From contig CAZNIV010000003.1 in assembly GCA_964573235.1 (NCBI GenBank), positions 1,482-65,481 of the forward strand: a stretch of 64,000 nt of DNA, given 5' to 3'. Positions within the stretch are counted from its first letter, which is position 1. Every line of letters begins with the position of its first letter. The stretch is from an uncultured Gammaproteobacteria bacterium. Its GTDB lineage: Bacteria > Patescibacteriota > Patescibacteriia > 2-01-FULL-39-33. A program made the translations under genes and the position numbers. The notes beneath the pieces are model-generated. The model did not search any database, had not been told where the DNA came from, and saw only the letters and a list, made by a program, of their open reading frames with translations. Positions 18,326-42,779 of the stretch are shown one piece after another.

Positions 18326-19336
18326 ATGAAATTGTTAGTTACTGGTGGTGCTGGATTTATTGGTTCTAATTTTATTCGTTATTGGTTAAAAAAATATTCT
18401 CAAGACCAGATTGTTAATTTGGATAAATTGACCTATGCTGGTAACTTAGAAAATTTGCATGAGCTTGCTGGCCAGAGTAATTATAAATTTATCAAGGGTG
18501 ATATTTGCGATCGAGAATTGGTTAATTCTTTAGTAAGTGATTGTGATATAATTGTGCATTTTGCCGCAGAGAGTCATGTAGATCGCTCTATCGCCGATTC
18601 TACGCCATTTATTGTGACTAATGTTTTAGGTACTCAGGTATTGTTGGATGCGGCGGTTAAAAATGGCAATAAACGATTTCATCATGTGTCTACGGATGAA
18701 GTTTTTGGCGCCCTGCCCTTAACCGGAGAGGAAAAGTTCACTGAAGATACTGCTTATAATCCACATAGTCCGTATGCGGCCTCTAAGGCGGCTTCGGATC
18801 ATTTGGTGCGTGCTTTTGGCGACACCTTTGGTTTGCCTTATACTATTTCTAATTGTTCTAATAATTTTGGGCCATGGCAATTTCCAGAAAAGTTTTTACC
18901 ATTGATGATTACTAATTTAATGGAAGGAAAAAAAATTCCAGTTTATGGTGATGGTCAATATGTTAGAGATTGGTTGTATGTCGATGATCATTGTCGGGCT
19001 ATTGATTTAATTTTGCATCAAGGAAAAGTAGGAGAAACTTATTGTATCGGTGGAATGGATAAAGATGTAAATAACTTAGAATTAGTAAAAAAAGTTTTAC
19101 AGATTATGAATTTATCTGAAGATCGCATTGAGTTTATTAAAGATCGTCCTGGTCATGATCGTCGCTATGCAGTTGATTTTAATAAAGCTAAAATAGAGTT
19201 GGGTTATGAGCCTCAATATAATTTAGATGAGTATTTAAGGTTAACGGTAGAGTGGTATGTGAATAATAAAGATTGGTGGCAAGGGGTAAAGAGTGGCGAA
19301 TATAAAAAATATTACGAAAAACAATATACACAATAA
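18326..19336 (+). CDS. rfbB: dTDP-glucose 4,6-dehydratase
   Basis: SDR Rossmann motif GGAGFIGSN, catalytic YAASKAASD, full-length match to the RmlB pattern. Confidence 0.95.
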   Translation: MKLLVTGGAGFIGSNFIRYWLKKYSQDQIVNLDKLTYAGNLENLHELAGQSNYKFIKGDICDRELVNSLVSDCDIIVHFAAESHVDRSIADSTPFIVTNVLGTQVLLDAAVKNGNKRFHHVSTDEVFGALPLTGEEKFTEDTAYNPHSPYAASKAASDHLVRAFGDTFGLPYTISNCSNNFGPWQFPEKFLPLMITNLMEGKKIPVYGDGQYVRDWLYVDDHCRAIDLILHQGKVGETYCIGGMDKDVNNLELVKKVLQIMNLSEDRIEFIKDRPGHDRRYAVDFNKAKIELGYEPQYNLDEYLRLTVEWYVNNKDWWQGVKSGEYKKYYEKQYTQ

Positions 19337-19337
19337 T

Positions 19338-20081
19338 ATGAAAGGAATTATTTTAGCGGGTGGTTACGGAACTAGATTGTTGCCTTGTACTAAGGTAACT
19401 AATAAACATTTATTGCCAGTTTATGATCGTCCGATGATTATGTATCCATTAAATACTTTAGTTCAAGCTGGAATCAGGGATATTATGATTGTCTCTGGCA
19501 CTGGTCATGCGGGACATTTTTTGGAGTTATTGGGATCTGGTCGCGATCTTGGTGTTAGATTATCTTATGCGGTGCAAGAAAAGGCTGGTGGCATTGCTGA
19601 AGCTTTGGGTCTGTGCGAAGATTTCGCTGATAATGATAAAATTGCGGTGATCTTAGGGGATAATATTTTTTTGGAGCAAGCTCAAATTAATAAGGCGGTA
19701 AAAGATTTTGATGTACAAAATCGAGGCGCCAAGATTCTAATCAAAGAAGTGGCAAATCCTAAGCGCTTCGGAGTAGCAGAGATTGCCGATGGCAACGTTA
19801 TTGGTATTGAAGAAAAGCCGGCCGAACCAAAATCTAATTATGCAGTAACTGGATTTTATTGTTACGATGGTCAAGTGTGGGAAATAGTTAAAACCCTAAA
19901 ACCATCTGGGCGCGGTGAATTAGAAATTACGGATGTAAATAATTATTATCTCAATAATAGTTTATTGACTTGCGAAATTTATCACGGTGACTGGACTGAT
20001 GCTGGTACACTAGATTCTTTATTAAAGGCTGCTAATTTAGTAGCTAATAAAACTAAAAAAGACTTTTTGTATGTTGAATAA
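19338..20081 (+). CDS. rfbA: Glucose-1-phosphate thymidylyltransferase-like sugar nucleotidyltransferase (short form)
   Basis: MKGIILAGGYGTRLLP signature. Real start at 19338; the upstream extension overlaps rfbB. Confidence 0.85.
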   Translation: MKGIILAGGYGTRLLPCTKVTNKHLLPVYDRPMIMYPLNTLVQAGIRDIMIVSGTGHAGHFLELLGSGRDLGVRLSYAVQEKAGGIAEALGLCEDFADNDKIAVILGDNIFLEQAQINKAVKDFDVQNRGAKILIKEVANPKRFGVAEIADGNVIGIEEKPAEPKSNYAVTGFYCYDGQVWEIVKTLKPSGRGELEITDVNNYYLNNSLLTCEIYHGDWTDAGTLDSLLKAANLVANKTKKDFLYVE

Positions 20082-23778: not shown

Positions 23779-23862
23779 AATTGATTAGGCACAATAGCTG
23801 AAGAATATTACTTCTATTATACAATAAAAATTAATAAATGACTAATGTATAAATAGTATTAA

Positions 23863-25329: not shown

Positions 25330-25344
25330 TTTGCTTAAGAGGTA

Positions 25345-27803: not shown

Positions 27804-27842
27804 TAAAAAAGAATTTATTACCGTATAAGTAACGTTTTACGT

Positions 27843-28925: not shown

Positions 28926-28927
28926 AA

Positions 28928-30649: not shown

Positions 30650-30711
30650 GTTCTAAGTTATTATTGTTATCAATATTATAACATATTTTGGGGTTAAAGA
30701 GAAAACTAAAA

Positions 30712-30733
30712 AACCCTGAAGTTATTCAGGGTT
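30712..30733 (-). terminator. Terminator downstream of the GT4 gene (minus strand)
   Basis: AACCCTGAA / TTCAGGGTT with loop GTTA. The T-run is on the minus-strand side (plus-strand CTAAAAA). Confidence 0.6.
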
Positions 30734-30750
30734 TTAGAGCGGGGAGTTTT

Positions 30751-31890
30751 TTAGGCGATTTTTAAAGATTTTTTAGCGATTAAGTTTTGGTATTGGATAA
30801 TAGTTTTGTGAGCGATATCATCCCAATTATAATCTTTATCTACCATGATTTTGGCTTTTCTGGCCAAGTCAGTAATAAGGTCATGGTCAGTATCGGCTAA
30901 GACTAATTGTTTGGTTAAATCAGCTCCACTTTTATTTTTAAAAGATAAGCTGTAGTCGCCAGTAGCTTCTAGGTTTTCTGGAATATCACTAACAATGACT
31001 GGGATTTCATAAGCCATAGCTTCTAGTAGGGCGATAGATAAGCCCTCAGCTTCTGAAGGTTGCACGAATAAGTAAGCGTTGGTGAATAAGGTATTTAATT
31101 CATTACCGGATTGAGAGCCAGTAAAAATAATATTTGGATTATTTACAGCTAAACGGTGTAAGTAAGAAACATATTCATCAGTATTGGATCCGCCACCAAC
31201 AATGACTAATTTTTTATCGGTTTTAATTTTTTGGTAAGCATCAATTAAAGTATGAACACCTTTATGTTGTACTAGGCGAGAAACTAAAACAAAGTATTTT
31301 TGCTTCTCTAAGCCATATTTATTTAAAATAGCAATTTGATGGCTGGAATTTTTTGCTGGGCTAATATTAACACCATTAGGAATGTAAGTAGCTTCTCGGT
31401 TAAATTGGGTTTTGACATATTTTTGTAATCCCTTAGAAATGACAATGGTTTCATGAGGAAAGTGGCAAGCGGCCCATTCTCCCATGGCTAACATTAATTT
31501 AGCAAAGTGACCCCATTTTTGATGTTCTTTATCTTGGCAGTGAAAGGTAACAACGACTTTGGTTTTTGGCGCTAACAATCTAGGAATCCAAGATAATAAA
31601 GCGGGGCCAACGCCATGGTAATGAATGACATTATAATTTTGAAAGATGGCATGCAAAGAAGAGAATAGGGTATGAGAAATAGCGTCTAAATTTTTGGTGT
31701 TAATGGATGGGCAATAAATTAAATTAACATTTTTATATTCGCTGTGACGATTGCCGGTATAATGCTCGCGAGCATACACAGTAACCGATTCATGGGCTTG
31801 GGCTAAACGCACAGCTAACTCCTCGACATGTTTTTCAATGCCGCCTTGTTTAGTAGGGATGCCTTTTTGTCCAATGAATGCGATTTTCAT
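30751..31890 (-). CDS. Family 4 glycosyltransferase
   Basis: GT-B fold with E-x7-E region EAEGLSIALLEAMAYEIPVIVSDIPEN. Confidence 0.85.
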   Translation of the reverse strand: MKIAFIGQKGIPTKQGGIEKHVEELAVRLAQAHESVTVYAREHYTGNRHSEYKNVNLIYCPSINTKNLDAISHTLFSSLHAIFQNYNVIHYHGVGPALLSWIPRLLAPKTKVVVTFHCQDKEHQKWGHFAKLMLAMGEWAACHFPHETIVISKGLQKYVKTQFNREATYIPNGVNISPAKNSSHQIAILNKYGLEKQKYFVLVSRLVQHKGVHTLIDAYQKIKTDKKLVIVGGGSNTDEYVSYLHRLAVNNPNIIFTGSQSGNELNTLFTNAYLFVQPSEAEGLSIALLEAMAYEIPVIVSDIPENLEATGDYSLSFKNKSGADLTKQLVLADTDHDLITDLARKAKIMVDKDYNWDDIAHKTIIQYQNLIAKKSLKIA

Positions 31891-31920
31891 ATATTTTTGG
31901 CTATTTGTTGTTGACTAATG

Positions 31921-31949
31921 ATTATAGCACAATGTGATAATTCTGTCAA
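31921..31949 (-). promoter_or_regulatory. Consensus sigma70 promoter for the GT4 gene
   Basis: Minus strand reads TTGACA (31949-31944), 17-nt spacer, TGC-TATAAT (31926-31921). Confidence 0.55.
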
Positions 31950-31986
31950 GTATTTAAGAAAAGTGAGAAATTTTGGAATTAAAGAA

Positions 31987-32038
31987 GCCCCGCGACCCTA
32001 GTGATTGCATTGGTTGCGTTCACTTTGGGTGGCGGGGC
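31987..32038 (-). terminator. Long GC-rich imperfect hairpin at the 3' end of the high-GC cassette (probable terminator)
   Basis: GCCCCGCGACCC (31987-31998) pairs with GGGTGGCGGGGC (32027-32038) with one mismatch. Inner GTGA/TCAC pairing. T-rich run follows on the minus strand. Confidence 0.5.
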
Positions 32039-32054
32039 TGGAGGCGGTTGGGGT

Positions 32055-32552
32055 TCAGTTGATCGGAATATTTTCTTCCGCGTCACCGTCCTTGGCGGCG
32101 ACAAGTTTGGTGTCCTTGCCATTGCGGGTGACGGCGGTTTTTTTGGTGTTTAGGAACACCTTGCTGCCGTCCTTGAGGACGACGTAGATGTTACACACCG
32201 TTCCAGCTGGCAACTTGCTCAGGTCGTAACCAACGGCAGTCTTGCCGTCGTAGCTGAATCCTGCTCCCGTGATGGGGTCGGCGCTGACCAGATTACCGGC
32301 CTCGTCGAGTTTCGCGTTGCTTTCGCTGTGGCAACCGTAGGGCGCCGATTTCGACATGATGAGCACGCCGATCTTGGTGATCTGGTCGATGGCGACGGGC
32401 TTGATGAGCCCGACGACATTCCCATCCTTGACAGCGACGGCGACGTGGATACCATTGGCATCCTTGGTCACATCGGCATCGGCGGCCTGGGTGTTGATGG
32501 CGGACAGTGCGGTCAGGGCGACCGCGGCGAGGATTGCGATTGTCTTTTTCAT
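32055..32552 (-). CDS. Secreted protein of unrecognised family, encoded in a high-GC cassette (165 aa)
   Basis: AGGGAG lies 8 nt upstream of ATG 32552. Signal peptide MKKTIAILAAVALTALSAINTQA|AD. Strong G/C third-position bias, two Cys. The ORF-track start at 32618 is an upstream extension. Confidence 0.7.
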   Translation of the reverse strand: MKKTIAILAAVALTALSAINTQAADADVTKDANGIHVAVAVKDGNVVGLIKPVAIDQITKIGVLIMSKSAPYGCHSESNAKLDEAGNLVSADPITGAGFSYDGKTAVGYDLSKLPAGTVCNIYVVLKDGSKVFLNTKKTAVTRNGKDTKLVAAKDGDAEENIPIN

Positions 32553-32728
32553 GGTAACTACTCCCTGTTGTTTTGAATACACACCACCGACAGTCGTTGC
32601 CGGCAGTAGGAACGACACCAGAACCAGGCACTGAAACTTTTTTCTCCTTTGTTTTTTTGTTTTTGTTGTATTGAAAGGTTCGAAGCTAATCGATTTGTCT
32701 AAAGCACTTTATCAGTACTCGACTAAGT

Positions 32729-32757
32729 ATTGTATCAGATAAGTGTGTATTTGTCAA
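32729..32757 (-). promoter_or_regulatory. Near-consensus sigma70 promoter reading into the high-GC cassette
   Basis: Minus strand reads TTGACA (32757-32752), 17-nt spacer, TACAAT (32734-32729). Lies in AT-rich, host-like DNA. Confidence 0.5.
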
Positions 32758-32793
32758 TAGTTAAATGATTAAAATCCCTTAGATTAGCTAAAT

Positions 32794-34482
32794 TTATCTA
32801 ATTTTACCATTAATTAGCCCATTTTTATCTAAAGCGGCATCAGTATTAATTGGTTTGGTGCTATAAGTTAAGGTTTCACCAGTAAGGGTGTCTTGGGCGC
32901 TAGCGGTAGTGGTGTTGATGATTTTTCCAACCATTCCGCCTTGGTCGGCAGTAGGAGTAAACTCTACTTCAAAGGCGCAAGCAATGCTAGGATAATTAGC
33001 ACTAGGGGCATTCACGGTATCAACATTCCAAGTGATTAAGTTATTTTTGGTATCGTAATGAACTCCACCATTAGCGGTAGTAGTGTATTGCCCGGTCCAG
33101 CGGACATTTTGACCAAGAGAAGTTTTAACTTGTAAATCTCTTAGATCATTTATATTGCTAGTAACTTGCATGGCTACCCAATAGCGAGTGGCCTCGCCGA
33201 TTTTCGGCGGTAATGGGCCAAAGCCAATTTGGTCACCTTCGGCGGTGAAGTATTTTAGGGTCACTGGCAAGGTCATTAAAGTGTTGATTTTTTGATTGAT
33301 AACATCAGCTGATTGAAAGCCAATATTGCCATCTGGCATAGTGTAATTTAGTTGGGTGGCTATGTTAAGAAAATTATTTTTTTGTTCACCATCCTTAAGA
33401 TTAATAGAAAAGGGAATGACTATAGACGCTTCTGGATTTAGACTGGCTAAGGCTAAAGTATTAGTGCGATCAAATTTAATGTTAGTGTCGCCTAATAGAT
33501 TATCCTCAGTAATATTAAGGGTGATATTTTTGACGGTAAAGTTTTCATGATTAATAATGGTGGCCAAATAAGAATTAACGCCAAAATTGGCATTTGTACT
33601 ATTGGCTTTAATGACTAAATCAATCTTAGATTTTTTAAAATTAATGGTAATGTTATTTTCAGCTAATTGATTTGAGCTATTGTCGGTAGTAATTTGGATC
33701 TTAAAAGAGTTGAGGGTTTTATTAATATTGTTTTTTACAGTTTTGGCAACAATCGTGCCAGTTAAACTTTGCTTAGGGTTTAGGGTAATGTTTTTTATGG
33801 GCAAAGTAGAAGAAGTGATGATTAAATTATTAGATAATAAATTATGACTCAGGGATAAGTTATTAATCGTGTTGTCACTTTTATTTTCAAGCGTAACATA
33901 GAAGGTAACTGGTTGACCGGCAAAAGCCCAGTCGGTAGCCTTTATGGTTAGAGACAATGGAGAGTCGCTGATATTTATTAGCTGGTTAATTTTTTTGGTA
34001 CGCTTGGCAGTATTGCCCTCGGGGATGAAAGTTAGTATTGAGTAAATTTGTTGTTCAGTTTTTGGCATCGCCCAAAACTTGCCGGAAAGGTTAATGGCGC
34101 CCTTGGCATTAATATCTAAGTCACCTAAGTTAAAGGTGATAGTTTTTTGGTCAAATTTTTGACTTGGAGATCCGCCAATTAATTCAAAGCTGTTAGGTAG
34201 ATTAAAAGTTAGTGTGGCTTGATTAAGTTGTTTACCTGATTTATTTTCGTAAGAAAAAATAAGATTAGTAACATCACCAGCAACAGTAGATTGATTTTGA
34301 TTTTCAGCGATTAAATCAATTTTATTTTCAATACGAAAGGCCACTTTATCTAAATGGCTATATAAACTAAGTGCCAATAAAATACCGACTAAAAAAAGCA
34401 AGAAAAAATTAAATACCAATGGGACCTTTTTTGTTTCAAATCGGCTGGCCGCAAAATCTTTTAGGAGTTTTTTTAGTTTCAT
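32794..34482 (-). CDS. Membrane-anchored, repeat-rich surface protein (DUF11/CARDB-like beta-sandwich modules, unverified)
   Basis: N-terminal TM (VPLVFNFFLLFLVGILLALSLY). N/T/S-rich beta-strand periodicity with recurring L.F.L.N...G....L.G modules. Confidence 0.6.
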   Translation of the reverse strand: MKLKKLLKDFAASRFETKKVPLVFNFFLLFLVGILLALSLYSHLDKVAFRIENKIDLIAENQNQSTVAGDVTNLIFSYENKSGKQLNQATLTFNLPNSFELIGGSPSQKFDQKTITFNLGDLDINAKGAINLSGKFWAMPKTEQQIYSILTFIPEGNTAKRTKKINQLINISDSPLSLTIKATDWAFAGQPVTFYVTLENKSDNTINNLSLSHNLLSNNLIITSSTLPIKNITLNPKQSLTGTIVAKTVKNNINKTLNSFKIQITTDNSSNQLAENNITINFKKSKIDLVIKANSTNANFGVNSYLATIINHENFTVKNITLNITEDNLLGDTNIKFDRTNTLALASLNPEASIVIPFSINLKDGEQKNNFLNIATQLNYTMPDGNIGFQSADVINQKINTLMTLPVTLKYFTAEGDQIGFGPLPPKIGEATRYWVAMQVTSNINDLRDLQVKTSLGQNVRWTGQYTTTANGGVHYDTKNNLITWNVDTVNAPSANYPSIACAFEVEFTPTADQGGMVGKIINTTTASAQDTLTGETLTYSTKPINTDAALDKNGLINGKIR

Positions 34483-34485
34483 ATA

Positions 34486-36585
34486 TTATTGGTTATTATT
34501 GATTATGGAGCTGATAGTAAATACGTTACTACTCAAAGCAATAATTTCTTTTTTGCCATCACCGTTTAAATCAGCTACGGTTACGCTGATGCCTTGACGA
34601 TTTTTCGGTACATAAGCCATAAAAGAGGAAAGTTGTTTACCGGTGTTAGAAAATACTTTTATTTCTGGCAAGGCATTGAAGCCGGCGCCAGTAATAATTT
34701 CTGCCCTGCCATCACCATTAACATCGCCAGCGGTTAGATTAACCCCATTGCGTAATTTATTATTATAAGCAAAAAAATCATTTATTAACTTGCCATTAGT
34801 ATCAAAAACTTTAACATGTGGACCGCCTCCATTGCCAGCTCCAGCGATAATTTCTACCTTGTTGTCGTCATTAATATCACCGACAGCGACATTTACTCCT
34901 AGCTTGATAGTTTTATTATTAAAAGCAGAAAACGATTTTGATTCTTGGCCGTACCAATTGAAAATTTTAATAGTATTGCCACCACCATTTTCTGATCCGG
35001 TGATAATTTCTTTTTTGCCATCGCCATTAATATCGGCTACAGCCAAAGAGATGCCATCTTGATATTTTTCACCATAAGGCATGAAGGTGGCAATGTTAAT
35101 TCCAGTTTCGCCAATAACATTAATAGTATTATTAGAAGCGCTAACGGTTTCAATAGTGCCATTATTATTAACATCGGTTTTGATTACTTTGTTGCTACCC
35201 TTTTGGTTTTTGTCGTAAGTAAAAAAACCGGTGCGAATATTATTTCCGGTGCTATCAAAAATTCTGGCGAAGGCGCCATTGATAAATACCGCATCTTTGA
35301 TTTCATTAACCCGACGGAGAAGAATAATGCCATCACGAGAAGCGAGGGTGACTTTGTTTATGATAGAGCCGTCATTAGTAATAGGATCTTGGTTGCCATG
35401 AATTTTTTCATACTCGCCATCAAAATAGGCTTCTTGGGGGTAGTCGGTAGAATTAACTAAAACAATGCCGTTAGTGAAATCGCGTTGCCAGAGACCACTA
35501 GTCATTTCGGGGTTGTTGGGGTTGAGTAAATTTTTTGTTCGTGATTGTGGTTCACCTAGATTAATATCAAATTCATCATACCACCAAAAGTGTTCACGCA
35601 ATTGTGGGCCGTAATCCATGGCATAAAAACCATTAAAGAGTAAGGAAGAGGCTAGAGTAAAACGCATTTTTTGATAGTCTTGGTTATTGGTGTTACCGGT
35701 ATTGCTATCTATTATATTAATGCGAGGCAAATAGCCGTTACCGTCTACTTGCTCATATTTTTTCATAGAACCAAGCCAGTCACCTTCGTATTGTTCCGGA
35801 AACCCTTCAAACATACGACCATTTAAGTATTGATGGTATAAGCCATCGCCATTGCCGACGATTAAATATTTGCTATCAATACGGGTGCGTAGTTTTTTGA
35901 GCAGATCAATATTGCCCTGTTGCCAGAGGCGGTCAATTTTTTCTTTGTTGTCATATATGCCGTCATTATCGATATCAATTTTGGCGTCCACCCAAGAAAC
36001 GGTTTGCCAGATATTATCTAATAATAAGCCATCCCATAAGCCCGTATTTAAAATTTTGTTTTGGTAAAAATCAGCCAAGAAATCGCCGTAAGTTTTATTG
36101 TTTTCATCTTTACTATAAGGATTCATTGAGACATTACCAGTCCACCAGGAAATATTTTTTCCATCAGTGGTTTTTAATTGCCATTGAGTTTTGGCGGCGC
36201 TAGTTAAATCATGCCACAAACCAATACCGCTTGGCTCGACTTCGTTTAGTCGGTATAGTGGTATTTCGTTGGAAGAAGTATAGGCGAGAATGATAATGTT
36301 TTTATTAAGTTGGCGCATTAGCCTGATAGCATCTGCAGAGTCATTTTGAGCTTGCATGCTTAAAGAAACTAAATCATATTTAGCTAGTTTTTTAGCTTCT
36401 TCTAAAGTAACGGGAGTTTTCCAAAACATGTTGGCCACTTTTGGATATTTGCCATCATTTTTTTGAGTCGCATCACCAGTGAAGTCGGGAAAAAATAAAA
36501 CCAAAGCTAAGAAAGCCGAAGCAAGGATGGTAGCCAAGGTGAAATCTAATTTTTGATATTTATTTCTTTTTCTTCTCATAATCAA
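34486..36585 (-). CDS. Membrane-anchored fusion of a glycoside-hydrolase-like TIM-barrel region and C-terminal FG-GAP/VCBS repeats
   Basis: N-terminal TM. GLWDGLLLDNIW is a GHL-type motif. At least four repeats of the form D(I/V/L)NGDGKKEIITG...GG..IKVF. Confidence 0.7.
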   Translation of the reverse strand: MIMRRKRNKYQKLDFTLATILASAFLALVLFFPDFTGDATQKNDGKYPKVANMFWKTPVTLEEAKKLAKYDLVSLSMQAQNDSADAIRLMRQLNKNIIILAYTSSNEIPLYRLNEVEPSGIGLWHDLTSAAKTQWQLKTTDGKNISWWTGNVSMNPYSKDENNKTYGDFLADFYQNKILNTGLWDGLLLDNIWQTVSWVDAKIDIDNDGIYDNKEKIDRLWQQGNIDLLKKLRTRIDSKYLIVGNGDGLYHQYLNGRMFEGFPEQYEGDWLGSMKKYEQVDGNGYLPRINIIDSNTGNTNNQDYQKMRFTLASSLLFNGFYAMDYGPQLREHFWWYDEFDINLGEPQSRTKNLLNPNNPEMTSGLWQRDFTNGIVLVNSTDYPQEAYFDGEYEKIHGNQDPITNDGSIINKVTLASRDGIILLRRVNEIKDAVFINGAFARIFDSTGNNIRTGFFTYDKNQKGSNKVIKTDVNNNGTIETVSASNNTINVIGETGINIATFMPYGEKYQDGISLAVADINGDGKKEIITGSENGGGNTIKIFNWYGQESKSFSAFNNKTIKLGVNVAVGDINDDNKVEIIAGAGNGGGPHVKVFDTNGKLINDFFAYNNKLRNGVNLTAGDVNGDGRAEIITGAGFNALPEIKVFSNTGKQLSSFMAYVPKNRQGISVTVADLNGDGKKEIIALSSNVFTISSIINNNQ

Positions 36586-37753
36586 TTAATGCTTCATATA
36601 TGGCGGATATTTTTTCGTAGTGTTTATTGGCAGAATAATCTAAACTAAAGGCGTAAGCATTTTTACCCATCCTTGTTGTTTCATTTGGGTTGTCTAGTAA
36701 ATATTGTATTTGCTCAGCCAGTTCTTGGTGATTGTCGCTAGTAAAAAGCAAGCCAGTTTGTTGTGGTTGGATTAGGTTGTTAAATGATCCGGCACGGGAA
36801 GCAATGACTGGCTTGCCACAGGCGAAGGTTTCTAGGGCGCCTAAGCCGAAAGTTTCGTGAACCCGAGAAGGAAAAACGGCAAAGTCAGCATTTTGAATAA
36901 AATTAAGCAATTCGTTTTTTTCTTTGCGTCCGATAAAAACCACCTTGTCAGTTAAGTTTAATTTTTTGACTTGATTTTTTAAATTAATTTCTTCTGGCCC
37001 CGAACCAATGATGACTAATTTGTGGTCGGTTTTAATTTGGGCAAAAGCATTAATTAAAACATCGGCACCTTTGCTTTCATCTAAACGGCCAAAGAATAAG
37101 ACATAAGGATAGCCGATAGGCTTGGGTTGAGTTTGATATCTTTCTAAATCGATAAAGTGGGGAATGACAATAATTTTTTGGGCGTCAAAACCATTTTTAA
37201 TTAGTTGTTCTTTGACAAATAGTGAGGGCGCAATAAACATATCTACATAACGGCGATAGATATTAATTTTTTTATGAAAAGCAAATTCTAGTTTTAGCAG
37301 TAGATCCACTAGACGAGAATTTTTAGCGGGTTGATTTTGGCCGATGCGTAAGGTGTAGTCGTGCTTGATTAGTTTAAAGTCATGAACGGTCATTACAATG
37401 GGTAAATTAAATTTTTTGATCGCTGGCAAAATAGAAGGCGATATTTGATGATAAATATTATGAAGATGGATTAAATCTGGGCGCTCTTTTTTAATTAGGG
37501 CGGAAATTTTTCTGGCGGCGCTGAACGACCAAAATAAGCGACCTAGGCGCCAAAAGCTAGACCAGCTAAATTTATCCAATGGTAAGTCGCTAATAAATAA
37601 GTCACTATTTGGGGAGGGGTAGTTTAGGGGGTGTTTTTGGGAGAAAGTTACATTTTTGTGGCCTTTTTTTTCTAATAAATTCATCAATGAAAATAGGTAA
37701 GTTTCGGTACCGCCTTTAGGATAAAAAAATTTGTTTATATGTAATATTTTCAT
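36560..37753 (-). CDS. Family 4 glycosyltransferase
   Basis: E-x7-E region HETFGLGALETFACGKPVIASRAG with a GT-B N-terminal domain. Confidence 0.85.
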   Translation of the reverse strand: MKILHINKFFYPKGGTETYLFSLMNLLEKKGHKNVTFSQKHPLNYPSPNSDLFISDLPLDKFSWSSFWRLGRLFWSFSAARKISALIKKERPDLIHLHNIYHQISPSILPAIKKFNLPIVMTVHDFKLIKHDYTLRIGQNQPAKNSRLVDLLLKLEFAFHKKINIYRRYVDMFIAPSLFVKEQLIKNGFDAQKIIVIPHFIDLERYQTQPKPIGYPYVLFFGRLDESKGADVLINAFAQIKTDHKLVIIGSGPEEINLKNQVKKLNLTDKVVFIGRKEKNELLNFIQNADFAVFPSRVHETFGLGALETFACGKPVIASRAGSFNNLIQPQQTGLLFTSDNHQELAEQIQYLLDNPNETTRMGKNAYAFSLDYSANKHYEKISAIYEALIDYEKKKK

Positions 37754-37757
37754 ATAT

Positions 37758-39218
37758 TTAATTTTGAATACTATTTTTGTTCACCACGGTGATAGTGCGA
37801 ATTAGACCCAGGATAATCCAGAAAAAAATGCCGGTTAAGTTAGTTTCTAAATAGGGCTGAAAGAAGCTAGCAATAAAAAATAGGACACCAGCGCTAATGA
37901 TTGGTAGGTAGTAAGGGGTTAATTCATGATTGAGATAAATTTGTTTAAAACTAGTAGCTAAAACGGAGATGATAAAAGCAATGAATAAGATAAAACCAAT
38001 TAGGCCGGTTTGAATGAGAATGGCCAACGGGGAATTATGTAGATTGCGTAATTCTTCGTAGTTTTGCCAATCGCCAGTTTGCAAGTTGACACGCTTGCCA
38101 AAGCCGGTGCCAAGCATTGGGTTTTTTAGCCAAGAGTTTAAAGCAATGGTCCACAAGTCTTTGCGCCAAATAGCACTAGCATCTTCTTGTAAATTAACAA
38201 TAGAAGAAGCGCGAGTTACTAGATATTCTCCGGTAGTATTAATATTAGCGCTAAGTTGTTGGCGTGGATACAATGAAGTAATAGTAAGAATGATGGCGAT
38301 GGCGCTAAAAATAATTAAAATATTTTTGGCAGAAAAATTAAGGATTTTCTTTTTTGCTTCTTTGGGAATAATTAAGATTAAAATTACCAGAGCAACAATT
38401 AAGGCTAGCCAGAGATGACGCATTAAAGATACGGCAATGCCAAGTAGCCAAATCCATAAAATTAATCCGGCTATTTGTTGGTTAGCGAATTTTTTAAATG
38501 CCAAAAAGCTTAATAAGATTAAAGAGGAAAGACATAAATAAAAAGCGTGAGTGCCAGCTAGTAAGCGCAGGCCAGTAGTGGATAGGGGAGTAAATTCAGT
38601 CCACAAGCCTTGCCCAGTGATTAAGCCGTAGAGGATAAAAGGAATAATGATTACGCCACCCAAAAGAATTACTTCTATAAGTCGTTTTAAATCTTTGGCT
38701 TTTTGAACTGAATAGATAATTAAAAAGTAGATGGCGGAATAAAAGACATAATTTTTTAAGGTAGAAAAGGCGATATCGACTTGCACATTGTAGTCGGTTA
38801 AGGAACGAATAAAGGTAAATAGATTAATCAATATAAATATAATTAGGAGTGTTTCTGGCCAACCCCAAATGAATTGCACGCGCGCTCTTTTTTGTAGGCG
38901 TAAATGGATTAAAAAACTAATAGCAGTTAAGATAATTAAAATATCCAAGGGATATAGTTTATAGATGGTTTGGTCAATGACTAATGATTGCAAGGTAAAA
39001 TATCGTTCAAAGACCATAGTAAGTAGAATAATCATGTTCAATCCCAATTGTTCGCTGTAGAAAATAAAAGCTAAGCCCGTAATGACAAAAATCGAATACA
39101 GCCAGATATTGGGAGCCAGTATCATTAAGAGGATTAAGATGGCAAAATAAATAAAAGCCAGACTATTGATTAGAATAGTACGGCTTTTGGTATTAGAATT
39201 TTGGTCGATGGCCAGCAT
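37758..39218 (-). CDS. O-antigen ligase/polymerase-like (Wzy_C) polytopic membrane protein
   Basis: At least 10 TM segments and a large loop followed by LRNLHNSPLAILIQTGLIGF, resembling the Wzy_C motif. Confidence 0.7.
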   Translation of the reverse strand: MLAIDQNSNTKSRTILINSLAFIYFAILILLMILAPNIWLYSIFVITGLAFIFYSEQLGLNMIILLTMVFERYFTLQSLVIDQTIYKLYPLDILIILTAISFLIHLRLQKRARVQFIWGWPETLLIIFILINLFTFIRSLTDYNVQVDIAFSTLKNYVFYSAIYFLIIYSVQKAKDLKRLIEVILLGGVIIIPFILYGLITGQGLWTEFTPLSTTGLRLLAGTHAFYLCLSSLILLSFLAFKKFANQQIAGLILWIWLLGIAVSLMRHLWLALIVALVILILIIPKEAKKKILNFSAKNILIIFSAIAIILTITSLYPRQQLSANINTTGEYLVTRASSIVNLQEDASAIWRKDLWTIALNSWLKNPMLGTGFGKRVNLQTGDWQNYEELRNLHNSPLAILIQTGLIGFILFIAFIISVLATSFKQIYLNHELTPYYLPIISAGVLFFIASFFQPYLETNLTGIFFWIILGLIRTITVVNKNSIQN

Positions 39219-39221
39219 AAT

Positions 39222-39992
39222 TTATTTTTGGGATGAATCCTGACTTGGTTCTTCTGGAGTGTAATGAGGAGTAGGGTATTGATATTGATTAAGTAAGTTT
39301 TCGTTAGTAGATTCGGCTAGTAATTCCGACTCAAGAGAGGCTTGATTGTTGTATTGGTTAACTAATTCTTTACGATTGCTAGTAATGGAGAATAGTCTTT
39401 GTTGAGGAAAAATAACGATCAAGGTAAGGCTTAAAAATAACCCAGCCACCAAACCGAGTAAGCTGTTGCGTAATATTTTTGGTTCGGCCCATTTATCGGA
39501 AACAGATGGTTCATTAACAGTGCGAATTAAAACATTACTACCAAAGCCGTGATAGTATTGATGATTATTTTTAATAGTAGTAATAATGGCGTTAATCATT
39601 TTTTCGGCTTGATCGCGATCTGGATGTAAGACAGCCACTTCCATGATGCCGTTGCCATCTTTAATTTTTACGGTTACCATATTTTTCCAATTGTTCAATC
39701 TTTTTTCGTCAGTAGTGCCAAGATTATCAATTAAAGCAGGGTTGGTTTTGTAGACTTGACTAATAAAGGAATTAGAATAAGCTACTTCGCCTAAAATTCC
39801 GGCGATATAGTCAGAAGAGCGGGAGGCGGTGTATGGGTCGATGCTATTCTGATTGAAAACGACAATGATTTTAGAGGTAGCTAGATATTTTGGTGTTTGC
39901 ATAAAGCTTAAAAGTAAGCTTAAGGCACCAAAAAAAAGCGTAATAATTGTTACGGTAATGAGGTTGTGACGATTGAATAAGGTTTGGTTCAT
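39222..39992 (-). CDS. Wzz/PCP-like bitopic protein (two TMs flanking an external domain)
   Basis: TM1 (ITVTIITLFFGALSLLLSF), external domain, then TM2 (LLGLVAGLFLSLTLIVIF). Start moved to ATG 39992 because the annotated TTG start at 40079 is a -35 box. Confidence 0.45.
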   Translation of the reverse strand: MNQTLFNRHNLITVTIITLFFGALSLLLSFMQTPKYLATSKIIVVFNQNSIDPYTASRSSDYIAGILGEVAYSNSFISQVYKTNPALIDNLGTTDEKRLNNWKNMVTVKIKDGNGIMEVAVLHPDRDQAEKMINAIITTIKNNHQYYHGFGSNVLIRTVNEPSVSDKWAEPKILRNSLLGLVAGLFLSLTLIVIFPQQRLFSITSNRKELVNQYNNQASLESELLAESTNENLLNQYQYPTPHYTPEEPSQDSSQK

Positions 39993-40049
39993 AGCTATTT
40001 GGCTAAAATTAGGTTTATTTAAAATATAAATTATCTGTTTAAACTTTTT

Positions 40050-40078
40050 TATTATAACAAATTTAACATAATTTGTCA
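40050..40078 (-). promoter_or_regulatory. Consensus sigma70 promoter of the surface-glycan operon
   Basis: Minus strand reads TTGACA (40078-40073), 17-nt spacer, TGT-TATAAT (40055-40050). Confidence 0.55.
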
Positions 40079-40115
40079 ATAGGGGTTAATTTTATTAAAG
40101 ATTTGTATTTAAAAG

Positions 40116-40144
40116 TAGACATTAATGTCAAAAATTATTATAAT
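40116..40144 (+). promoter_or_regulatory. Sigma70 promoter of the small-membrane-protein/mraY transcription unit
   Basis: TAGACA (40116-40121), 17-nt spacer, TATAAT (40139-40144). Back-to-back with the minus-strand promoter. Confidence 0.5.
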
Positions 40145-40156
40145 GATACCAAATAA

Positions 40157-40537
40157 TTGCCAAATATGATACTTTCTTTTTTGGAGGAGAAAATTAAAAC
40201 CAATCCGGCACGACGGGACAAAGTTATTCTAATCAACGCTTTATTGGCTTTGGTTTTTAATGTAGCCCTATGGGTGTTATTTTTGTATTATTTTCATTCA
40301 GCTAGTGAATATATTGTGTTGAAGTATAATATCTATTTTGGCATCAGTGACTTAGGACTATGGTATTATGTGCTATTTTTGCCCTTAATAGGTTTGTTGG
40401 TTTTGTTGATAAATTATTTTGTGGCTTTGCTTATTTTTTTGCGCAATACTTATTTGAGTTATTTATTATCTTTCAGTTCTAGTATTGTTAATTTATTGTT
40501 ATTAATTGCTGGGTTGTTTTTAATTTATAAAAATTAA
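40157..40537 (+). CDS. Small 3-4 TM membrane protein of unknown function (intact copy)
   Basis: ORF of 126 aa from TTG 40157 (ATG alternative at 40166). Hydrophobic segments ALLALVFNVALWVLFLYYF, VLFLPLIGLLVLLINYFVALLIF, IVNLLLLIAGLFLIY. Confidence 0.6.
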   Translation: MPNMILSFLEEKIKTNPARRDKVILINALLALVFNVALWVLFLYYFHSASEYIVLKYNIYFGISDLGLWYYVLFLPLIGLLVLLINYFVALLIFLRNTYLSYLLSFSSSIVNLLLLIAGLFLIYKN

Positions 40538-40551
40538 TTAGTTATTATATT

Positions 40552-40707
40552 ATGTCTATAGAGTTTTTGGTGGTCAAAGTATTCTTTTTTGCTTTTATTT
40601 CTTTTGTAATTGCTATTTTGTGGACGCCATTATTAACTCATTTTTTGTATAAATATCGCTTGGGACAAAGTTATTCTAATCAACGCTTTATTGGCTTTGG
40701 TTTTTAA
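40552..40707 (+). pseudogene. mraY 5' fragment created by the duplication (first 38 codons, then out-of-frame tail)
   Basis: MSIEFLVVKVFFFAFISFVIAILWTPLLTHFLYKYRLG is identical to the intact MraY N-terminus, then QSYSNQRFIGFGF and a stop at 40705-40707. Confidence 0.7.
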
Positions 40708-40984
40708 TGTAGCCCTATGGGTGTTATTTTTGTATTATTTTCATTCAGCTAGTGAATATATTGTGTTGAAGTATAATATCTATTTTGGCATCAGTGACTT
40801 AGGACTATGGTATTATGTGCTATTTTTGCCCTTAATAGGTTTGTTGGTTTTGTTGATAAATTATTTTGTGGCTTTGCTTATTTTTTTGCGCAATACTTAT
40901 TTGAGTTATTTATTATCTTTCAGTTCTAGTATTGTTAATTTATTGTTATTAATTGCTGGGTTGTTTTTAATTTATAAAAATTAA
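40691..40984 (+). pseudogene. 5'-truncated duplicate of the small membrane-protein gene
   Basis: 97 aa identical to the C-terminal 97 aa of ORF 40157..40537. Only a TTG start is available and the original N-terminus and promoter are missing. Confidence 0.55.
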
Positions 40985-40998
40985 TTAGTTATTATATT

Positions 40999-42108
40999 AT
41001 GTCTATAGAGTTTTTGGTGGTCAAAGTATTCTTTTTTGCTTTTATTTCTTTTGTAATTGCTATTTTGTGGACGCCATTATTAACTCATTTTTTGTATAAA
41101 TATCGCTTGGGTAAGCAAATTCGCGCCAGTGAAGATGCGCCAATCTTTGCGCAGTTACATCAAAAAAAATCTGGCACGCCGGTAATGGGTGGTATGTTGG
41201 TATGGGTAACCACCTTGGTATTGGCGTTACTTTTTTGGTTGTTAGGATTTTTATTTAATGGGATGTTTAGCGGTCTTAATTTTTTAAGTCGCGCCCAAAC
41301 CTGGTTACCGCTGGGAGCATTGGTTATTACGGCTTTGGTTGGTATGGTGGATGATTATTTAAATGTGCGTCGTATTGGGCCAAAGGGGGGCGGTTTTTCT
41401 ATGAAGCATCGTTTGATTTTATATACAATCATTGCCATTGTGGTGGCTTGTTGGTTTTACTTTAAGTTAGATTGGGATTTAGTGCGAGTGCCTTTTTTGG
41501 GAGATTTTAATATTGGTTGGTGGTATATTCCATTCGCAGTATTTGTAGTAGTGGCGACCGCCTTTTCGGTTAATGAAACAGATGGCTTAGATGGTTTGGC
41601 TGGTGGCACCTTAATGACTTCTTTTTTGGCGATTGGTGCCATTGCTTTTATCCAGCAGCGTTATGACTTGGCTACTTTTTGTGCTGTAATTGCTGGGTCT
41701 TTATTGGCATTTTTATGGTTTAATATTGCTCCGGCTCGTTTTTTTATGGGTGATACGGGCGCTATGTCTATGGGGGTGGTATTAGCCATTATCGCCCTGC
41801 TAACCAATTCTGTTTTATTGTTGCCAGTTATTGGTTTGGTTTTTGTCTTAGAATCAGTTTCGGTGTTAATCCAAATGATTTCTAAAAAGTTAAGAAAAGG
41901 AAAAAAGATTTTTTTATCTACTCCGATCCATCATCACTTCGAGGCCGTTGGTTGGCCAGAAACTAAAATAGTGATGCGTGCCTGGGTAATATCGATGGTA
42001 GTAGCGGTAGCTGGTTTAGCTTTGTTTTTAACAGATGTTAAAACTAATAAAGATAATCAATATACAACGCAATGCAAAATTTTAGATAATAAATTAGATC
42101 ATAAATAA
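40999..42108 (+). CDS. mraY: Phospho-N-acetylmuramoyl-pentapeptide transferase
   Basis: NETDGLDGLA, FMGDTGAMSMG, PIHHHFE motifs. 10-TM architecture. Confidence 0.95.
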   Translation: MSIEFLVVKVFFFAFISFVIAILWTPLLTHFLYKYRLGKQIRASEDAPIFAQLHQKKSGTPVMGGMLVWVTTLVLALLFWLLGFLFNGMFSGLNFLSRAQTWLPLGALVITALVGMVDDYLNVRRIGPKGGGFSMKHRLILYTIIAIVVACWFYFKLDWDLVRVPFLGDFNIGWWYIPFAVFVVVATAFSVNETDGLDGLAGGTLMTSFLAIGAIAFIQQRYDLATFCAVIAGSLLAFLWFNIAPARFFMGDTGAMSMGVVLAIIALLTNSVLLLPVIGLVFVLESVSVLIQMISKKLRKGKKIFLSTPIHHHFEAVGWPETKIVMRAWVISMVVAVAGLALFLTDVKTNKDNQYTTQCKILDNKLDHK

Positions 42109-42110
42109 TT

Positions 42111-42779
42111 ATGACTGAAACGAAAATAACAGTGGGCGGTCAAGTATTTGATCGTTTTCATGTTAAGACTCATGTAGTAATGTTTGGGGATAAAATTGAA
42201 GACGTAGTAGAAAAATATGCTAAGCCAATTTTGCAAGCAAATGATTGGTTGTTTATTAGTGAGAAAGTAGTAGCGGTTACCCAAGGTCGCGCTTATAAAA
42301 TTGTAGATATTAAAGTTTCATTTTTAGCTAATTTTTTAGTGAAGTTTGTTTATAAGTCACCGTATGGTATTGGCTTAGGCCGACCGCAAACAATGCAATT
42401 AGCTATTAACGAAGCGGGGGCTTGGCGTATTTTGTTAGGCGCTTTAGTTTCGGCTATTACTAAACCGTTTGGGGTTCGCGGTATTTTTTATAAAGTAGTG
42501 GGCAAGGGAATTAATGCGATTGATGGCCCATGTGACTATACTCTGCCGCCTTATAATCAATATGCTGTTCTTGGCCCTAAAGACCCGGATAAGGTAGCTG
42601 CTATGCTGGCGGAGAAAAATAATTGCGAAGTGGTGATTGTGGATGCTAATGATTTAGGAGTGGCCATTTTAGGTGCCAGCAAAAATGTTGATCGGAAGTT
42701 AGCAGCGGAAATTTTTCGGGATAATCCATTAGGGCAAACAAATGAACAAACCCCACTTTGTGTAGTGAGAAAAATTTAA
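42111..42779 (+). CDS. CofE / F420-0:gamma-glutamyl-ligase-like domain protein
   Basis: WLFISEKVVAVTQGRAY and EVVIVDANDLGVAILGAS resemble F420_ligase-family motifs. ~220 aa, tightly packed between mraY and murD. Confidence 0.5.
   Translation: MTETKITVGGQVFDRFHVKTHVVMFGDKIEDVVEKYAKPILQANDWLFISEKVVAVTQGRAYKIVDIKVSFLANFLVKFVYKSPYGIGLGRPQTMQLAINEAGAWRILLGALVSAITKPFGVRGIFYKVVGKGINAIDGPCDYTLPPYNQYAVLGPKDPDKVAAMLAEKNNCEVVIVDANDLGVAILGASKNVDRKLAAEIFRDNPLGQTNEQTPLCVVRKI

Follow-up and report, generated by a model that had tools for sequence, protein, structure and literature searches.

The subject of this report is a group of glycan-related genes on the minus strand of a 64,000-nucleotide stretch of DNA (GenBank assembly GCA_964573235.1, contig CAZNIV010000003.1, positions 1,482 to 65,481), which is referred to below as the window; it was deposited as an uncultured Gammaproteobacteria bacterium and is placed by GTDB in Patescibacteriota. 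Five genes of one operon encode a Wzz-like protein, a Wzy_C/WaaL-like membrane enzyme, a glycosyltransferase (GT) of family GT4, a membrane-anchored protein with a GHL15 TIM barrel and FG-GAP repeats, and an anchored protein of 562 amino acids (aa), and a second GT4 gene (gt4b) lies downstream of them (Table 1). With a confidence somewhat better than even it is held that these genes form a module typical of the Patescibacteria lineage, which would assemble and process an envelope polysaccharide from a lipid-linked donor and possess a dedicated external retaining glycanase or transglycosylase.

The proposed course of events is as follows. The two cytoplasmic GT4 enzymes (that of the operon and the Cps2T-like one encoded by gt4b) would extend a polyprenyl-diphosphate-linked oligosaccharide, for which RmlA/RmlB may supply a dTDP-6-deoxyhexose. 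After translocation, the Wzy_C/WaaL-like enzyme, acting on the outer side of the single membrane, would either polymerise the glycan or pass it on to an acceptor, and in the clade of the window a Wzz/CpsC-like polysaccharide co-polymerase (PCP) may modulate the chain length. The tethered GH168-like retaining TIM-barrel enzyme would cut or transglycosylate the nascent polymer, while the FG-GAP propeller and the co-translated stalk protein of CLIPPER/DUF11 type would bind the product, space it or display it on the surface. Direct results of the analysis are the gene content, the operon structure, the folds, the conserved catalytic residues, the synteny and the fusions; the lipid carrier, the sugar, the acceptor and the choice of the GH domain between hydrolysis and transglycosylation are proposals drawn from them.

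The component families of the module, the presence of Wzy_C and PCP proteins in monoderm bacteria and the theme of a GT4 enzyme combined with a tethered TIM-barrel endo-alpha-glycanase are already known. What is new is the widely conserved combination of Wzy_C, GT4, GH168-like propeller and CLIPPER proteins, the fusions of GT and GH168 domains and, as it appears, a membrane-anchored and biosynthetic role of the GH168/GHL15 fold in bacteria of the candidate phyla radiation (CPR); no description of the module was found in full-text literature searches. The CPR/Patescibacteria constitute a large share of bacterial diversity, they are mostly uncultured and their envelope chemistry is essentially unexplored. 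The module offers a concrete handle on it, as it predicts a specific surface polymer, an expressible soluble ectodomain and candidate surface antigens for labelling or enrichment. The GH168/GHL15 enzymes, so far known only as marine degraders of fucoidan, are extended here to an anchored, apparently biosynthesis-coupled role, and no established principle is overturned by the module alone.

Conservation and gene fusions in related genomes

Relatives of the GHL15 protein were collected by scanning one genome of each GTDB species for a pattern and are present in at least 366 Patescibacteria species genomes. Eighty loci (labelled with L numbers below) were retrieved and analysed with six-frame open reading frames (ORFs), phmmer, iterated hidden Markov models and all-against-all clustering, some of the recurrent neighbour clusters being annotated. 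Every named homolog and every informatively titled locus belongs to Patescibacteria, with titles such as Buchanan-, Falkow-, Uhr-, Kuenenbacteria or Parcubacteria group. Many loci whose gene content is clearly patescibacterial bear the title "uncultured Gammaproteobacteria bacterium", and one that of "Nanoarchaeia archaeon"; these titles look like mislabels.

In 67 of the 71 loci with at least 1.5 kb of downstream sequence, the GHL15 gene is directly followed by one for a homolog of the 562-aa protein, and in 44 of 71 loci a GT4 gene stands directly upstream of the GHL15 gene or is fused to it. A Wzy_C-like gene is located within 10 kb in 30 of the 41 loci that have at least 8 kb of sequence on either side. 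Two arrangements recur: in one, wzy, sometimes a further gt4, gt4, ghl and p562 follow each other on a single strand; in the other, ghl, p562 and gt4 are followed by convergent gt4 and wzy genes, often with an ECF (extracytoplasmic function) sigma factor, a DUF5667 protein and an HTH gene in front. The full order of the window, which is mraY, the divergent wzz-wzy-gt4-ghl-p562 and then gt4b-pilB-pilC, is kept in approximately 15-20 closest species. The co-conservation on which an earlier, sequence-only reading of this DNA depended is borne out by these counts, and precomputed Pfam annotation on independent contigs agrees with the synteny.

The most telling point is provided by gene fusions. 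Among the top 120 homologs of the GHL15 protein there are 11 polypeptides in which a GT4 domain, a transmembrane (TM) helix and GHL15 are joined (FG-GAP follows in ten of them, and P0092 ends after GHL15), and one further homolog carries a GT2 domain in place of GT4. At the level of sequence such a fusion is a Rosetta-stone link between glycan synthesis and the anchored protein, and the connection of glycan enzymes with two anchored proteins is hereby stronger than was claimed from the gene order of the window.

A gt4b-type gene occurs in 25 of the 51 loci with at least 8 kb of downstream sequence and follows the 562-aa homolog directly in eight of them; in a close relative (L004) it is found 118 bp after the 562-aa gene. 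As judged from this gene order, gt4b is a conserved member of the module that was split off in the window by a high-GC insertion. Both the second GT4 gene and the high-GC cassette had been correctly noticed downstream of the operon, and the boundaries then given to the module were incomplete, as gt4b belongs to it and the high-GC ORF is an insertion.

Several further features of the related loci can be mentioned. In loci of Uhrbacteria type, genes for an ECF sigma factor, a DUF5667 protein (candidate anti-sigma factor) and a small HTH_17 protein are situated immediately upstream of the GHL15 gene (L086, 8092-9999; L088, 7780-9971), which suggests that the module is under envelope-stress control there. 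A GT4 is fused to an S-adenosylmethionine (SAM) methyltransferase domain in a protein of 668 aa (L087, 7989-9995), and a radical-SAM/SPASM gene precedes wzy in 14 loci (for example L045, 967-2016).

The anchored GHL15 protein, a probable enzyme, and its stalk-like partner

The GHL15 protein matches its Pfam family with an E value of 7.4e-29 (101.9 bits against a gathering score of 27) and FG-GAP with 1.6e-18 to 2.8e-20, so the domains that had been named from the sequence were recognised correctly. A hydropathy scan places a TM helix at residues 15-33. The AlphaFold2 model, built with 24 homologs (predicted local distance difference test, pLDDT, 88.4; predicted TM-score, pTM, 0.80), comprises a TM helix (10-31), a TIM barrel (about 49-345), a beta-sandwich (about 365-424) and the FG-GAP repeats (about 439-685); the last region has five DxNxDGxxE calcium-loop motifs and is read, from the model, as a beta-propeller. 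All of the top 12 Foldseek matches are structures of the GH168-type fucanase family (E 3.5e-16 to 1.2e-12, target-normalised TM-scores 0.61-0.70, identity 15-19%), including 9nhf, PbFucA (8rg3/8rg5), its Planctomycetota relative 9f9v and Fun168D/E, and the structure of a true GH114 galactosaminidase (9ep6) follows far behind this set. The GHL15 profile also matches 8rg3/8rg5, a GH168-type fucanase that was deposited under a "GH114 TIM-barrel" name. As the depositors of 9nhf describe the chain as a GHL15 protein and the entry as a family 168 hydrolase, Pfam GHL15 corresponds to CAZy GH168.

The endo-fucanases of GH168 are TIM-barrel enzymes with a retaining mechanism, in which an Asp on strand beta4 (D172) is the nucleophile and a Glu on beta6 (E243) the acid/base (PMC12534559). 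In HMMER alignments with 9nhf and 8rg3/8rg5, the Asp of the DG(I/V)FMD motif stands opposite D190 of the protein described here (WDGLLLD), and the Glu of the MIEHF motif opposite E260 (NGRMFE). Neither residue varies among the 24 homologs. In the model a beta4-like strand terminates in D190, and E260 lies on the barrel strand that follows. From this strand position and from the spacing (70 residues against 71 between D172 and E243), and not from a direct alignment to that enzyme, we infer that D190 and E260 are the GH168 catalytic pair. Because the fold is GH168-like and the Asp/Glu pair is invariant, the ectodomain is most likely an active retaining glycanase or transglycosylase, and the protein is better read as an enzyme of the pathway than as a passive surface protein to be decorated, which was the role given to it before.

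The GHL15 protein shares the Pfam family, the closest folds and, as D190 and E260 are read here, the Asp/Glu pair with the GH168 fucanases (endo-alpha-1,3/1,4-L) of marine Bacteroidota and Planctomycetota. In contrast to these secreted enzymes it is anchored in the membrane and additionally carries a beta-sandwich and an FG-GAP propeller; it belongs to a biosynthetic locus and is often fused to a GT, whereas GH168 loci are catabolic, and it comes from freshwater or groundwater CPR bacteria and not from fucoidan degraders. Several relatives have a second, divergent paralog of GHL15 type (about 125-190 bits), which is encoded in the other orientation at a distance of 7-9 kb upstream from the main gene (L002, 3173-4603; L053-L061, about 50-2900); the window has none.

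The 562-aa protein has a single N-terminal TM helix (residues 22-40, hydropathy scan). DUF11 (PF01345), which had been listed earlier as a domain to be checked, is matched by 23 of 27 orthologs (best 3.1e-19), some of them matching the related DUF7619 or DUF7507, whereas the copy in the window has no significant Pfam match of its own; precomputed PF01345 matches on the orthologs are faint. The C-terminal part of about 150 aa is the most conserved in the family. The AlphaFold2 model (three sequences) is all-beta and of low confidence (pLDDT 50.6), and its Foldseek matches, integrin legs and macroglobulin domains with a TM-score of about 0.2, are readable only as strings of immunoglobulin (Ig)-like beta-sandwiches. 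Against PDB sequences the family profile gave noise only (arrestin, E about 0.2), and homolog searches with the single sequence and with an alignment of 27 sequences returned only two to three proteins, the prefilter being swamped by low-complexity words. Under its new name CLIPPER, DUF11 is described as a CnaA-like Ig domain from which the stalks of fibrillar adhesins are built (PMC12617251). The protein described here, all-beta and surface-anchored with orthologs that match DUF11, resembles the CLIPPER/DUF11 stalks of fibrillar adhesins and of archaeal S-layer-associated proteins. It differs from them in its anchor, which is an N-terminal TM helix and not a sortase, OmpA or archaeosortase signal, and in being without an adhesive tip domain.

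The GHL15 and 562-aa proteins could also be considered an outward-directed device for attack on, or attachment to, host or environmental polysaccharides (feeding, episymbiotic adhesion), which would adjoin glycan-synthesis genes only through shared envelope regulation. CPR bacteria are thought to be host-dependent, and in 11 of the 41 well-flanked loci the pair occurs without a nearby Wzy_C gene. Moreover, the characterised GH168 enzymes are all catabolic endo-fucanases (PMC12534559, PMC7401878), and CLIPPER/DUF11 domains are the building blocks of adhesin stalks (PMC12617251). Nevertheless, such a device is quite unlikely: repeated independent fusions with an N-terminal cytoplasmic GT4 or GT2 are hard to square with a purely catabolic or adhesive protein, the GHL15 gene of the window overlaps the upstream GT4 gene, and no genes of sugar uptake or catabolism were found in the window or among the annotated neighbours of the related loci.

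For a module that assembles and processes a polysaccharide there are parallels in other organisms. In the fungal alpha-1,3-glucan synthase Ags1 an intracellular GT-B synthase is fused to an extracellular GH13-like transglycosylase, an architecture that is mirrored by the GT-TM-GH fusions. A GT4 enzyme and a tethered TIM-barrel endo-alpha-glycanase are combined, as here, in the Pel (PelF and PelA) and galactosaminogalactan (Gtb3 and Ega3/Sph3) systems (PMC12054363 for the hydrolase families), and the TIM-barrel glycanase PslG of the Psl system is comparable to the GHL15 protein. The logic shared with Pel, galactosaminogalactan, Psl and Ags1 would be that a retaining GT-B enzyme works inside the cell and that the polymer needs to be processed outside it by a dedicated TIM-barrel glycanase or transglycosylase. 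The resemblance to Pel and galactosaminogalactan is seen as functional only: a CE4/CE18 deacetylase or PelD/E/G was not seen in the window or among the annotated recurrent neighbours, the locus has a Wzy_C enzyme instead of a synthase-type translocon and is without a c-di-GMP (cyclic dimeric guanosine monophosphate) receptor, and the GH family is a different one.

A more far-reaching proposal is that the proteins composed of GT, TM helix, GH168-like barrel and propeller, which are divided here between two overlapping genes, are a bacterial counterpart of fungal synthase/transglycosylases of Ags1 type and that, together with the WaaL-like enzyme and the CLIPPER stalk, they build and cross-link a polymer rich in 6-deoxyhexose (rhamnan- or fucan-like), which would serve this large Patescibacteria clade as its main outer coat or as its host-attachment matrix. 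Taken jointly, these two claims are speculative and unlikely to hold. If they were true, the GH168/GHL15 fold would work biosynthetically (transglycosylation, maturation) and not catabolically, in a type of pathway undescribed in the literature searched.

The membrane enzyme, its probable donor and the proposed polymer

The Wzy_C protein scores 64.6 bits against PF04932 (gathering cutoff 31.7). All 30 sampled orthologs match Pfam Wzy_C as well, so the iterated model is free of drift and the assignment as O-antigen ligase/polymerase-like, already proposed from sequence, is upheld. A simple hydropathy scan, which is not a dedicated predictor, indicates 11 hydrophobic segments and a large loop at about residues 319-405. 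The single sequence found no match in PDB; with a profile of the 30 orthologs, which was needed for any match, the WaaL of Cupriavidus metallidurans (CmWaaL, PDB 7TPG/7TPJ) was the sole solved structure recognised (7tpg, E 2.9e-12), and the match is limited to profile positions 221-451, which are the Wzy_C half. R267, R352 and H394 align with R191, R265 and H313 of CmWaaL and are conserved in 30, 27 and 25 of the 30 orthologs, respectively. In WaaL and in the O-oligosaccharyltransferase (O-OTase) PglS these Arg and His positions have been proposed to bind the diphosphate of undecaprenyl diphosphate (Und-PP) and to act as the catalytic base, and the related O-OTases PglL, PglS and PilO have the same positions (PMC12800693). 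As they are kept here, the sequence points to a polyprenyl-diphosphate-linked donor; these residues say nothing about the acceptor, and a ligase, a polymerase and an O-OTase are not discriminated by the sequence. The genes of undecaprenyl phosphate metabolism in the window (uppP, mraY, murA) count for a lipid-linked pathway. The exact Wzy_C protein is also encoded in an NCBI metagenome-assembled genome (MAG), GCA_037133135.1.

A difference from WaaL is that its acceptor, the lipid A-core, cannot exist here. Classical synthesis of a lipopolysaccharide (LPS) O-antigen and its ligation to the lipid A-core, which has only the family names Wzz and Wzy_C/"O-antigen ligase" in its favour, is effectively refuted: there are no lipid A, core, Lpt or Bam genes in the window, the lineage is Patescibacteria and the type IV pilus cluster is without a secretin. 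The same features of this Patescibacteria/CPR MAG sustain the earlier opinion that the product is not LPS. Wzy_C and PCP proteins are common in monoderm bacteria, for instance TuaE/TuaF, CpsC, TacL and WsaB. The organism is probably outer-membrane-less, as follows from general knowledge of the group and from the absence of outer-membrane genes in the window.

Protein decoration was among the options of the sequence-only reading. As an O-OTase (compare PglL, PilO and PglS, or WsaB/WsfB, which act in the glycosylation of Gram-positive S-layers), the Wzy_C protein would O-glycosylate the 562-aa or the 699-aa protein, an S-layer protein or pilins with a lipid-linked glycan. Enzymes of this kind share Wzy_C/RfaL domains and the active-site layout of Arg and His residues of WaaL (PMC12800693), and these residues are conserved in the protein described here. 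A surface protein of stalk type always accompanies the module, and the closest clade has the cluster immediately next to a type IV pilus operon. The fusion of GT4 and methyltransferase in one ortholog, the rhamnosyltransferase-like gt4b and the nearby rmlA/rmlB genes recall the poly-rhamnan pathway of the Geobacillus S-layer. However, the acceptor is not identifiable from sequence, and the presence of a PCP/Wzz partner and of an intact endo-glycanase fused to a GT suits the assembly of a polymer better than the en-bloc decoration of proteins. The 699-aa protein is an enzyme and not an obvious substrate of glycosylation, and pilB is found within 10 kb of the GHL15 gene in only 10 of the 51 loci with at least 8 kb downstream, all from the closest clade, so that the link to the pilus looks like inherited gene order and pilin glycosylation was discounted as the main role. 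Protein O-glycosylation is for these reasons a rather unlikely function of the module.

According to the hydropathy scan, the two TM helices of the Wzz-like protein (residues 11-29 and 177-195) enclose an external loop of about 150 aa, and about 60 aa follow as a cytoplasmic tail. The window copy remains below the threshold of Pfam Wzz (PF02706, 21.4 bits, cutoff 25.5); it matches TIGR01006 CpsC with 2.8e-8 (33.5 bits, cutoff 296) over model positions 16-195 of 226, and NCBIfam TuaF weakly (5e-3). Among the orthologs, 17 of 20 match Pfam Wzz at E <=0.01 (best 1e-8), GNVR is matched in four, and the L087 ortholog has a strong precomputed PF02706 match; the ortholog profile found no match among PDB sequences. 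The Wzz assignment of the sequence-only reading does not reach the threshold on the window copy, and it is backed by the orthologs, the match to the CpsC family and the bitopic topology. As the partner of a PCP of class PCP-2, a bacterial tyrosine kinase (BY-kinase; CpsD or Wzc kinase domain) was looked for, and no P-loop kinase was present in the operon or in the scanned window ORFs (48 of the 49 of at least 150 aa; the excluded one, 42781-44181, is read as murD from the Mur-ligase Pfam matches of its ortholog).

The same ORFs contain no flippase of the MOP (multidrug/oligosaccharidyl-lipid/polysaccharide) superfamily (Polysacc_synt, MurJ), no initiating transferase of Bac_transf or WecA type and no LPS-core families, in accordance with what had been said of the window before; the only member of PF00953 is a genuine mraY (217 bits against TIGR00445, cutoff 192). 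The adjacent PCP-like, Wzy_C and GT4 genes in one operon are reminiscent of Wzx/Wzy pathways (O-antigen, Gram-positive Cps with CpsC, teichuronic acid with TuaE/TuaF/TuaC of Bacillus subtilis). The locus differs from them in being without a Wzx flippase, an initiating phosphoglycosyltransferase and a CpsD-type kinase, in the restriction of the PCP to a minority of the module copies and in having an anchored glycanase and a stalk protein as integral parts.

In both GT4 genes the two GT-B halves (Glyco_transf_4, Glycos_transf_1) are above threshold, with 9.6e-24 and 1.3e-43, respectively, for the operon GT4, and an NCBIfam equivalog cutoff is reached by neither. The best NCBIfam match of gt4b is the beta-1,4-rhamnosyltransferase Cps2T (6.7e-28, full length, far below the cutoff). 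The two GT4 proteins match TuaC with 4e-16 and 8e-23 and the diacylglycerol glucosyltransferases Mgs, Dgs and IagA/BgsA with 5e-20 to 8e-14, likewise far below the cutoffs. These matches, together with that of the PCP to TuaF and the monoderm-like character of the organism, would fit a polymer anchored to a glycolipid (lipoteichoic-acid-like) or a teichuronic-acid-like wall polymer, with a GT4 as the enzyme that makes the glycolipid anchor or lengthens the chain, the Wzy_C protein in the manner of the TacL ligase or the TuaE polymerase and the Wzz-like protein as a TuaF-like PCP. TacL of Streptococcus pneumoniae is a ligase of the Wzy_C family which acts on glycolipid acceptors. A wall polymer of this kind is nonetheless very unlikely, as all the supporting NCBIfam matches are far below the family cutoffs, equivalents of tuaA, tuaB, tuaD and tuaG as well as LtaS and TacF are lacking in the window, and the conserved GH168-like enzyme and the CLIPPER protein are left unexplained.

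As for the sugar, an rmlB gene (466 bits against TIGR01181, above the cutoff of 365) and an rmlA-like gene (275 bits against TIGR01207, below the cutoff of 360.65) are situated 11 kb from the module, and the pair may supply its precursor. To our knowledge the only characterised GH168 substrates are 6-deoxy-L-galactans. Since gt4b resembles Cps2T, rmlA/rmlB are nearby and GH168 acts on such substrates, a polymer containing 6-deoxyhexose is a reasonable guess and no more.

Four observations weigh against polysaccharide assembly as the general function of the module. Neither the window nor the neighbouring genes of the 80 loci, as far as these were annotated or visibly recurrent, yielded an initiating phosphoglycosyltransferase, a flippase or an ABC (ATP-binding cassette) exporter. 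Of the 41 loci with 8 kb or more on either side, 11 have a Wzz-like gene no more than 10 kb away from the GHL15 gene, and this gene is confined to the closest clade, thus Wzy-type polymerisation with chain-length control is not the general mode. The 11 of 41 loci that have the GHL15 and 562-aa pair but no Wzy_C gene within 10 kb mean that the pair can be encoded apart from the transferases. Finally, with an identity of only 15-19% to GH168 structures, the substrate of those enzymes cannot be carried over to the GHL15 protein.

Operon layout, inserted cassette and surroundings

The ORF listing confirms five genes of one minus-strand operon (32794-39992), as it had been described. The junctions are short, with a gap of 3 nucleotides (nt) between wzz and wzy, 4 nt between wzy and GT4 and 3 nt between GHL15 and the 562-aa gene. 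GT4 and GHL15 overlap by 26 nt, as reported earlier, if translation starts at TTG 36585, and by 20 nt if it starts at ATG 36579; the latter is the start called by NCBI and is probably the true one.

Table 1. Positions of the module and of associated features in the window
Feature	Position	Strand	Basis
rmlB (dTDP-glucose 4,6-dehydratase) and rmlA-like thymidylyltransferase	18326..20081	+	NCBIfam
Second GT4 (gt4b), 379 aa	30751-31890 (unit 30710..31949)	-	GT4 domains plus DUF1972
Foreign cassette, ~740 bp	32021..32757	-	GC content, own promoter, orphan ORF, GC-rich hairpin
Anchored all-beta surface protein, 562 aa	32794..34482	-	TM helix, DUF11 in orthologs, synteny
Anchored GHL15 (GH168-like) TIM barrel + beta-sandwich + FG-GAP, 697 aa (699 from TTG)	34486..36579	-	Pfam, model
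Cytoplasmic GT4 glycosyltransferase, 397 aa	36560..37753	-	GT4 domains, no TM helix
Wzy_C/WaaL-like polytopic membrane enzyme, 486 aa	37758..39218	-	Pfam Wzy_C, ~11 TM helices
PCP/Wzz-like bitopic protein, 256 aa	39222..39992	-	Pfam/NCBIfam matches, topology, orthologs
Operon promoter	40051..40079	-	TTGACA-17-TATAAT with TG extended -10, score 12/12

The consensus promoter of the operon was recognised before and proves to be a perfect one with an extended -10 element, its coordinates being shifted by one base (40079-40051 instead of 40078-40050). Only three minus-strand promoter sites with a score of at least 11/12 occur within 30500-41200; all are intergenic and directly upstream of a gene, and they precede the operon, the high-GC ORF (32757-32729, 11/12) and gt4b (31949-31921, 12/12). 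The gt4b unit ends with a terminator at 30735-30710, and no strong internal promoter or terminator was found inside the operon. The first gene of the operon starts with ATG 39992, and the same call is made in GCA_037133135.1. A longer ORF of 285 aa reaches too far upstream, since the TTG at 40079 with which it would begin belongs to the -35 hexamer of the promoter. A Shine-Dalgarno sequence is not recognisable in the A/T-rich leaders of the native genes (for example at 39992, 39218, 37753, 34482, 31890 and 30649), and only the foreign high-GC ORF possesses one.

This ORF (32055-32552) encodes 165 aa with a signal peptide, has 57.6% GC in a genome of 36% and is preceded by the Shine-Dalgarno sequence GGGAG. 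The cassette is an insertion between the 562-aa gene and gt4b and no part of the machine; it is absent from all 80 related loci. Its junctions recur in three other metagenome assemblies with 99.9-100% identity, on account of which an assembly chimera was rejected. Among 1.84 billion cluster representatives no relative of the ORF product was found below E 1e-7; weak matches concern repeats in unrelated large surface proteins, and the donor lineage was not traced. The possibility of an RNA gene in the high-GC segment was rejected too, since Rfam (gathering thresholds) and ARAGORN detected nothing in the whole window.

The window has approximately 36% GC and a strong positive GC skew. It contains a dcw (division and cell wall) cluster with mraW, mraY, murD, ftsW, murG, murC and murB, as well as uppP, murA, secA and the type IV pilus cluster (pilB, pilC, pilM, pilN and N-methyl pilin-like genes). 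Among the products of the pilus cluster (21640-30649) are a pilin-like protein of 605 aa, which carries an N-methylation motif and a CarboxypepD_reg domain, and two anchored proteins of 213 and 488 aa without an assigned family. An ORF of 698 aa (10214-12310) has 14 predicted TM helices and no match in Pfam, NCBIfam or PDB sequences; it may represent a transporter, a flippase or a GT-C enzyme that is not recognised as such. The adjoining anchored protein of 450 aa (12311-13663) has a PEGA domain and weak matches to WD40-type beta-propellers, and, like the product of a 792-aa ORF without any family match (57081-59459), it may be a further surface protein.

Upstream of the operon there is a perfect tandem duplication of 447 bp (40215-40661/40662-41108). 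The repeated segment takes in the small ORF that precedes mraY together with ~110 nt from the beginning of mraY, and a 5' piece of mraY is thereby left at about 40552-40671. The contig of GCA_037133135.1, which is otherwise 99.9% identical, does not have the duplication, which is either a recent event or an assembly artefact. Between mraY and murD a gene similar to F420-0:gamma-glutamyl ligase is located (42111-42779; PF01996, 1.7e-7), and the same order is observed in two relatives (L001 and L002).

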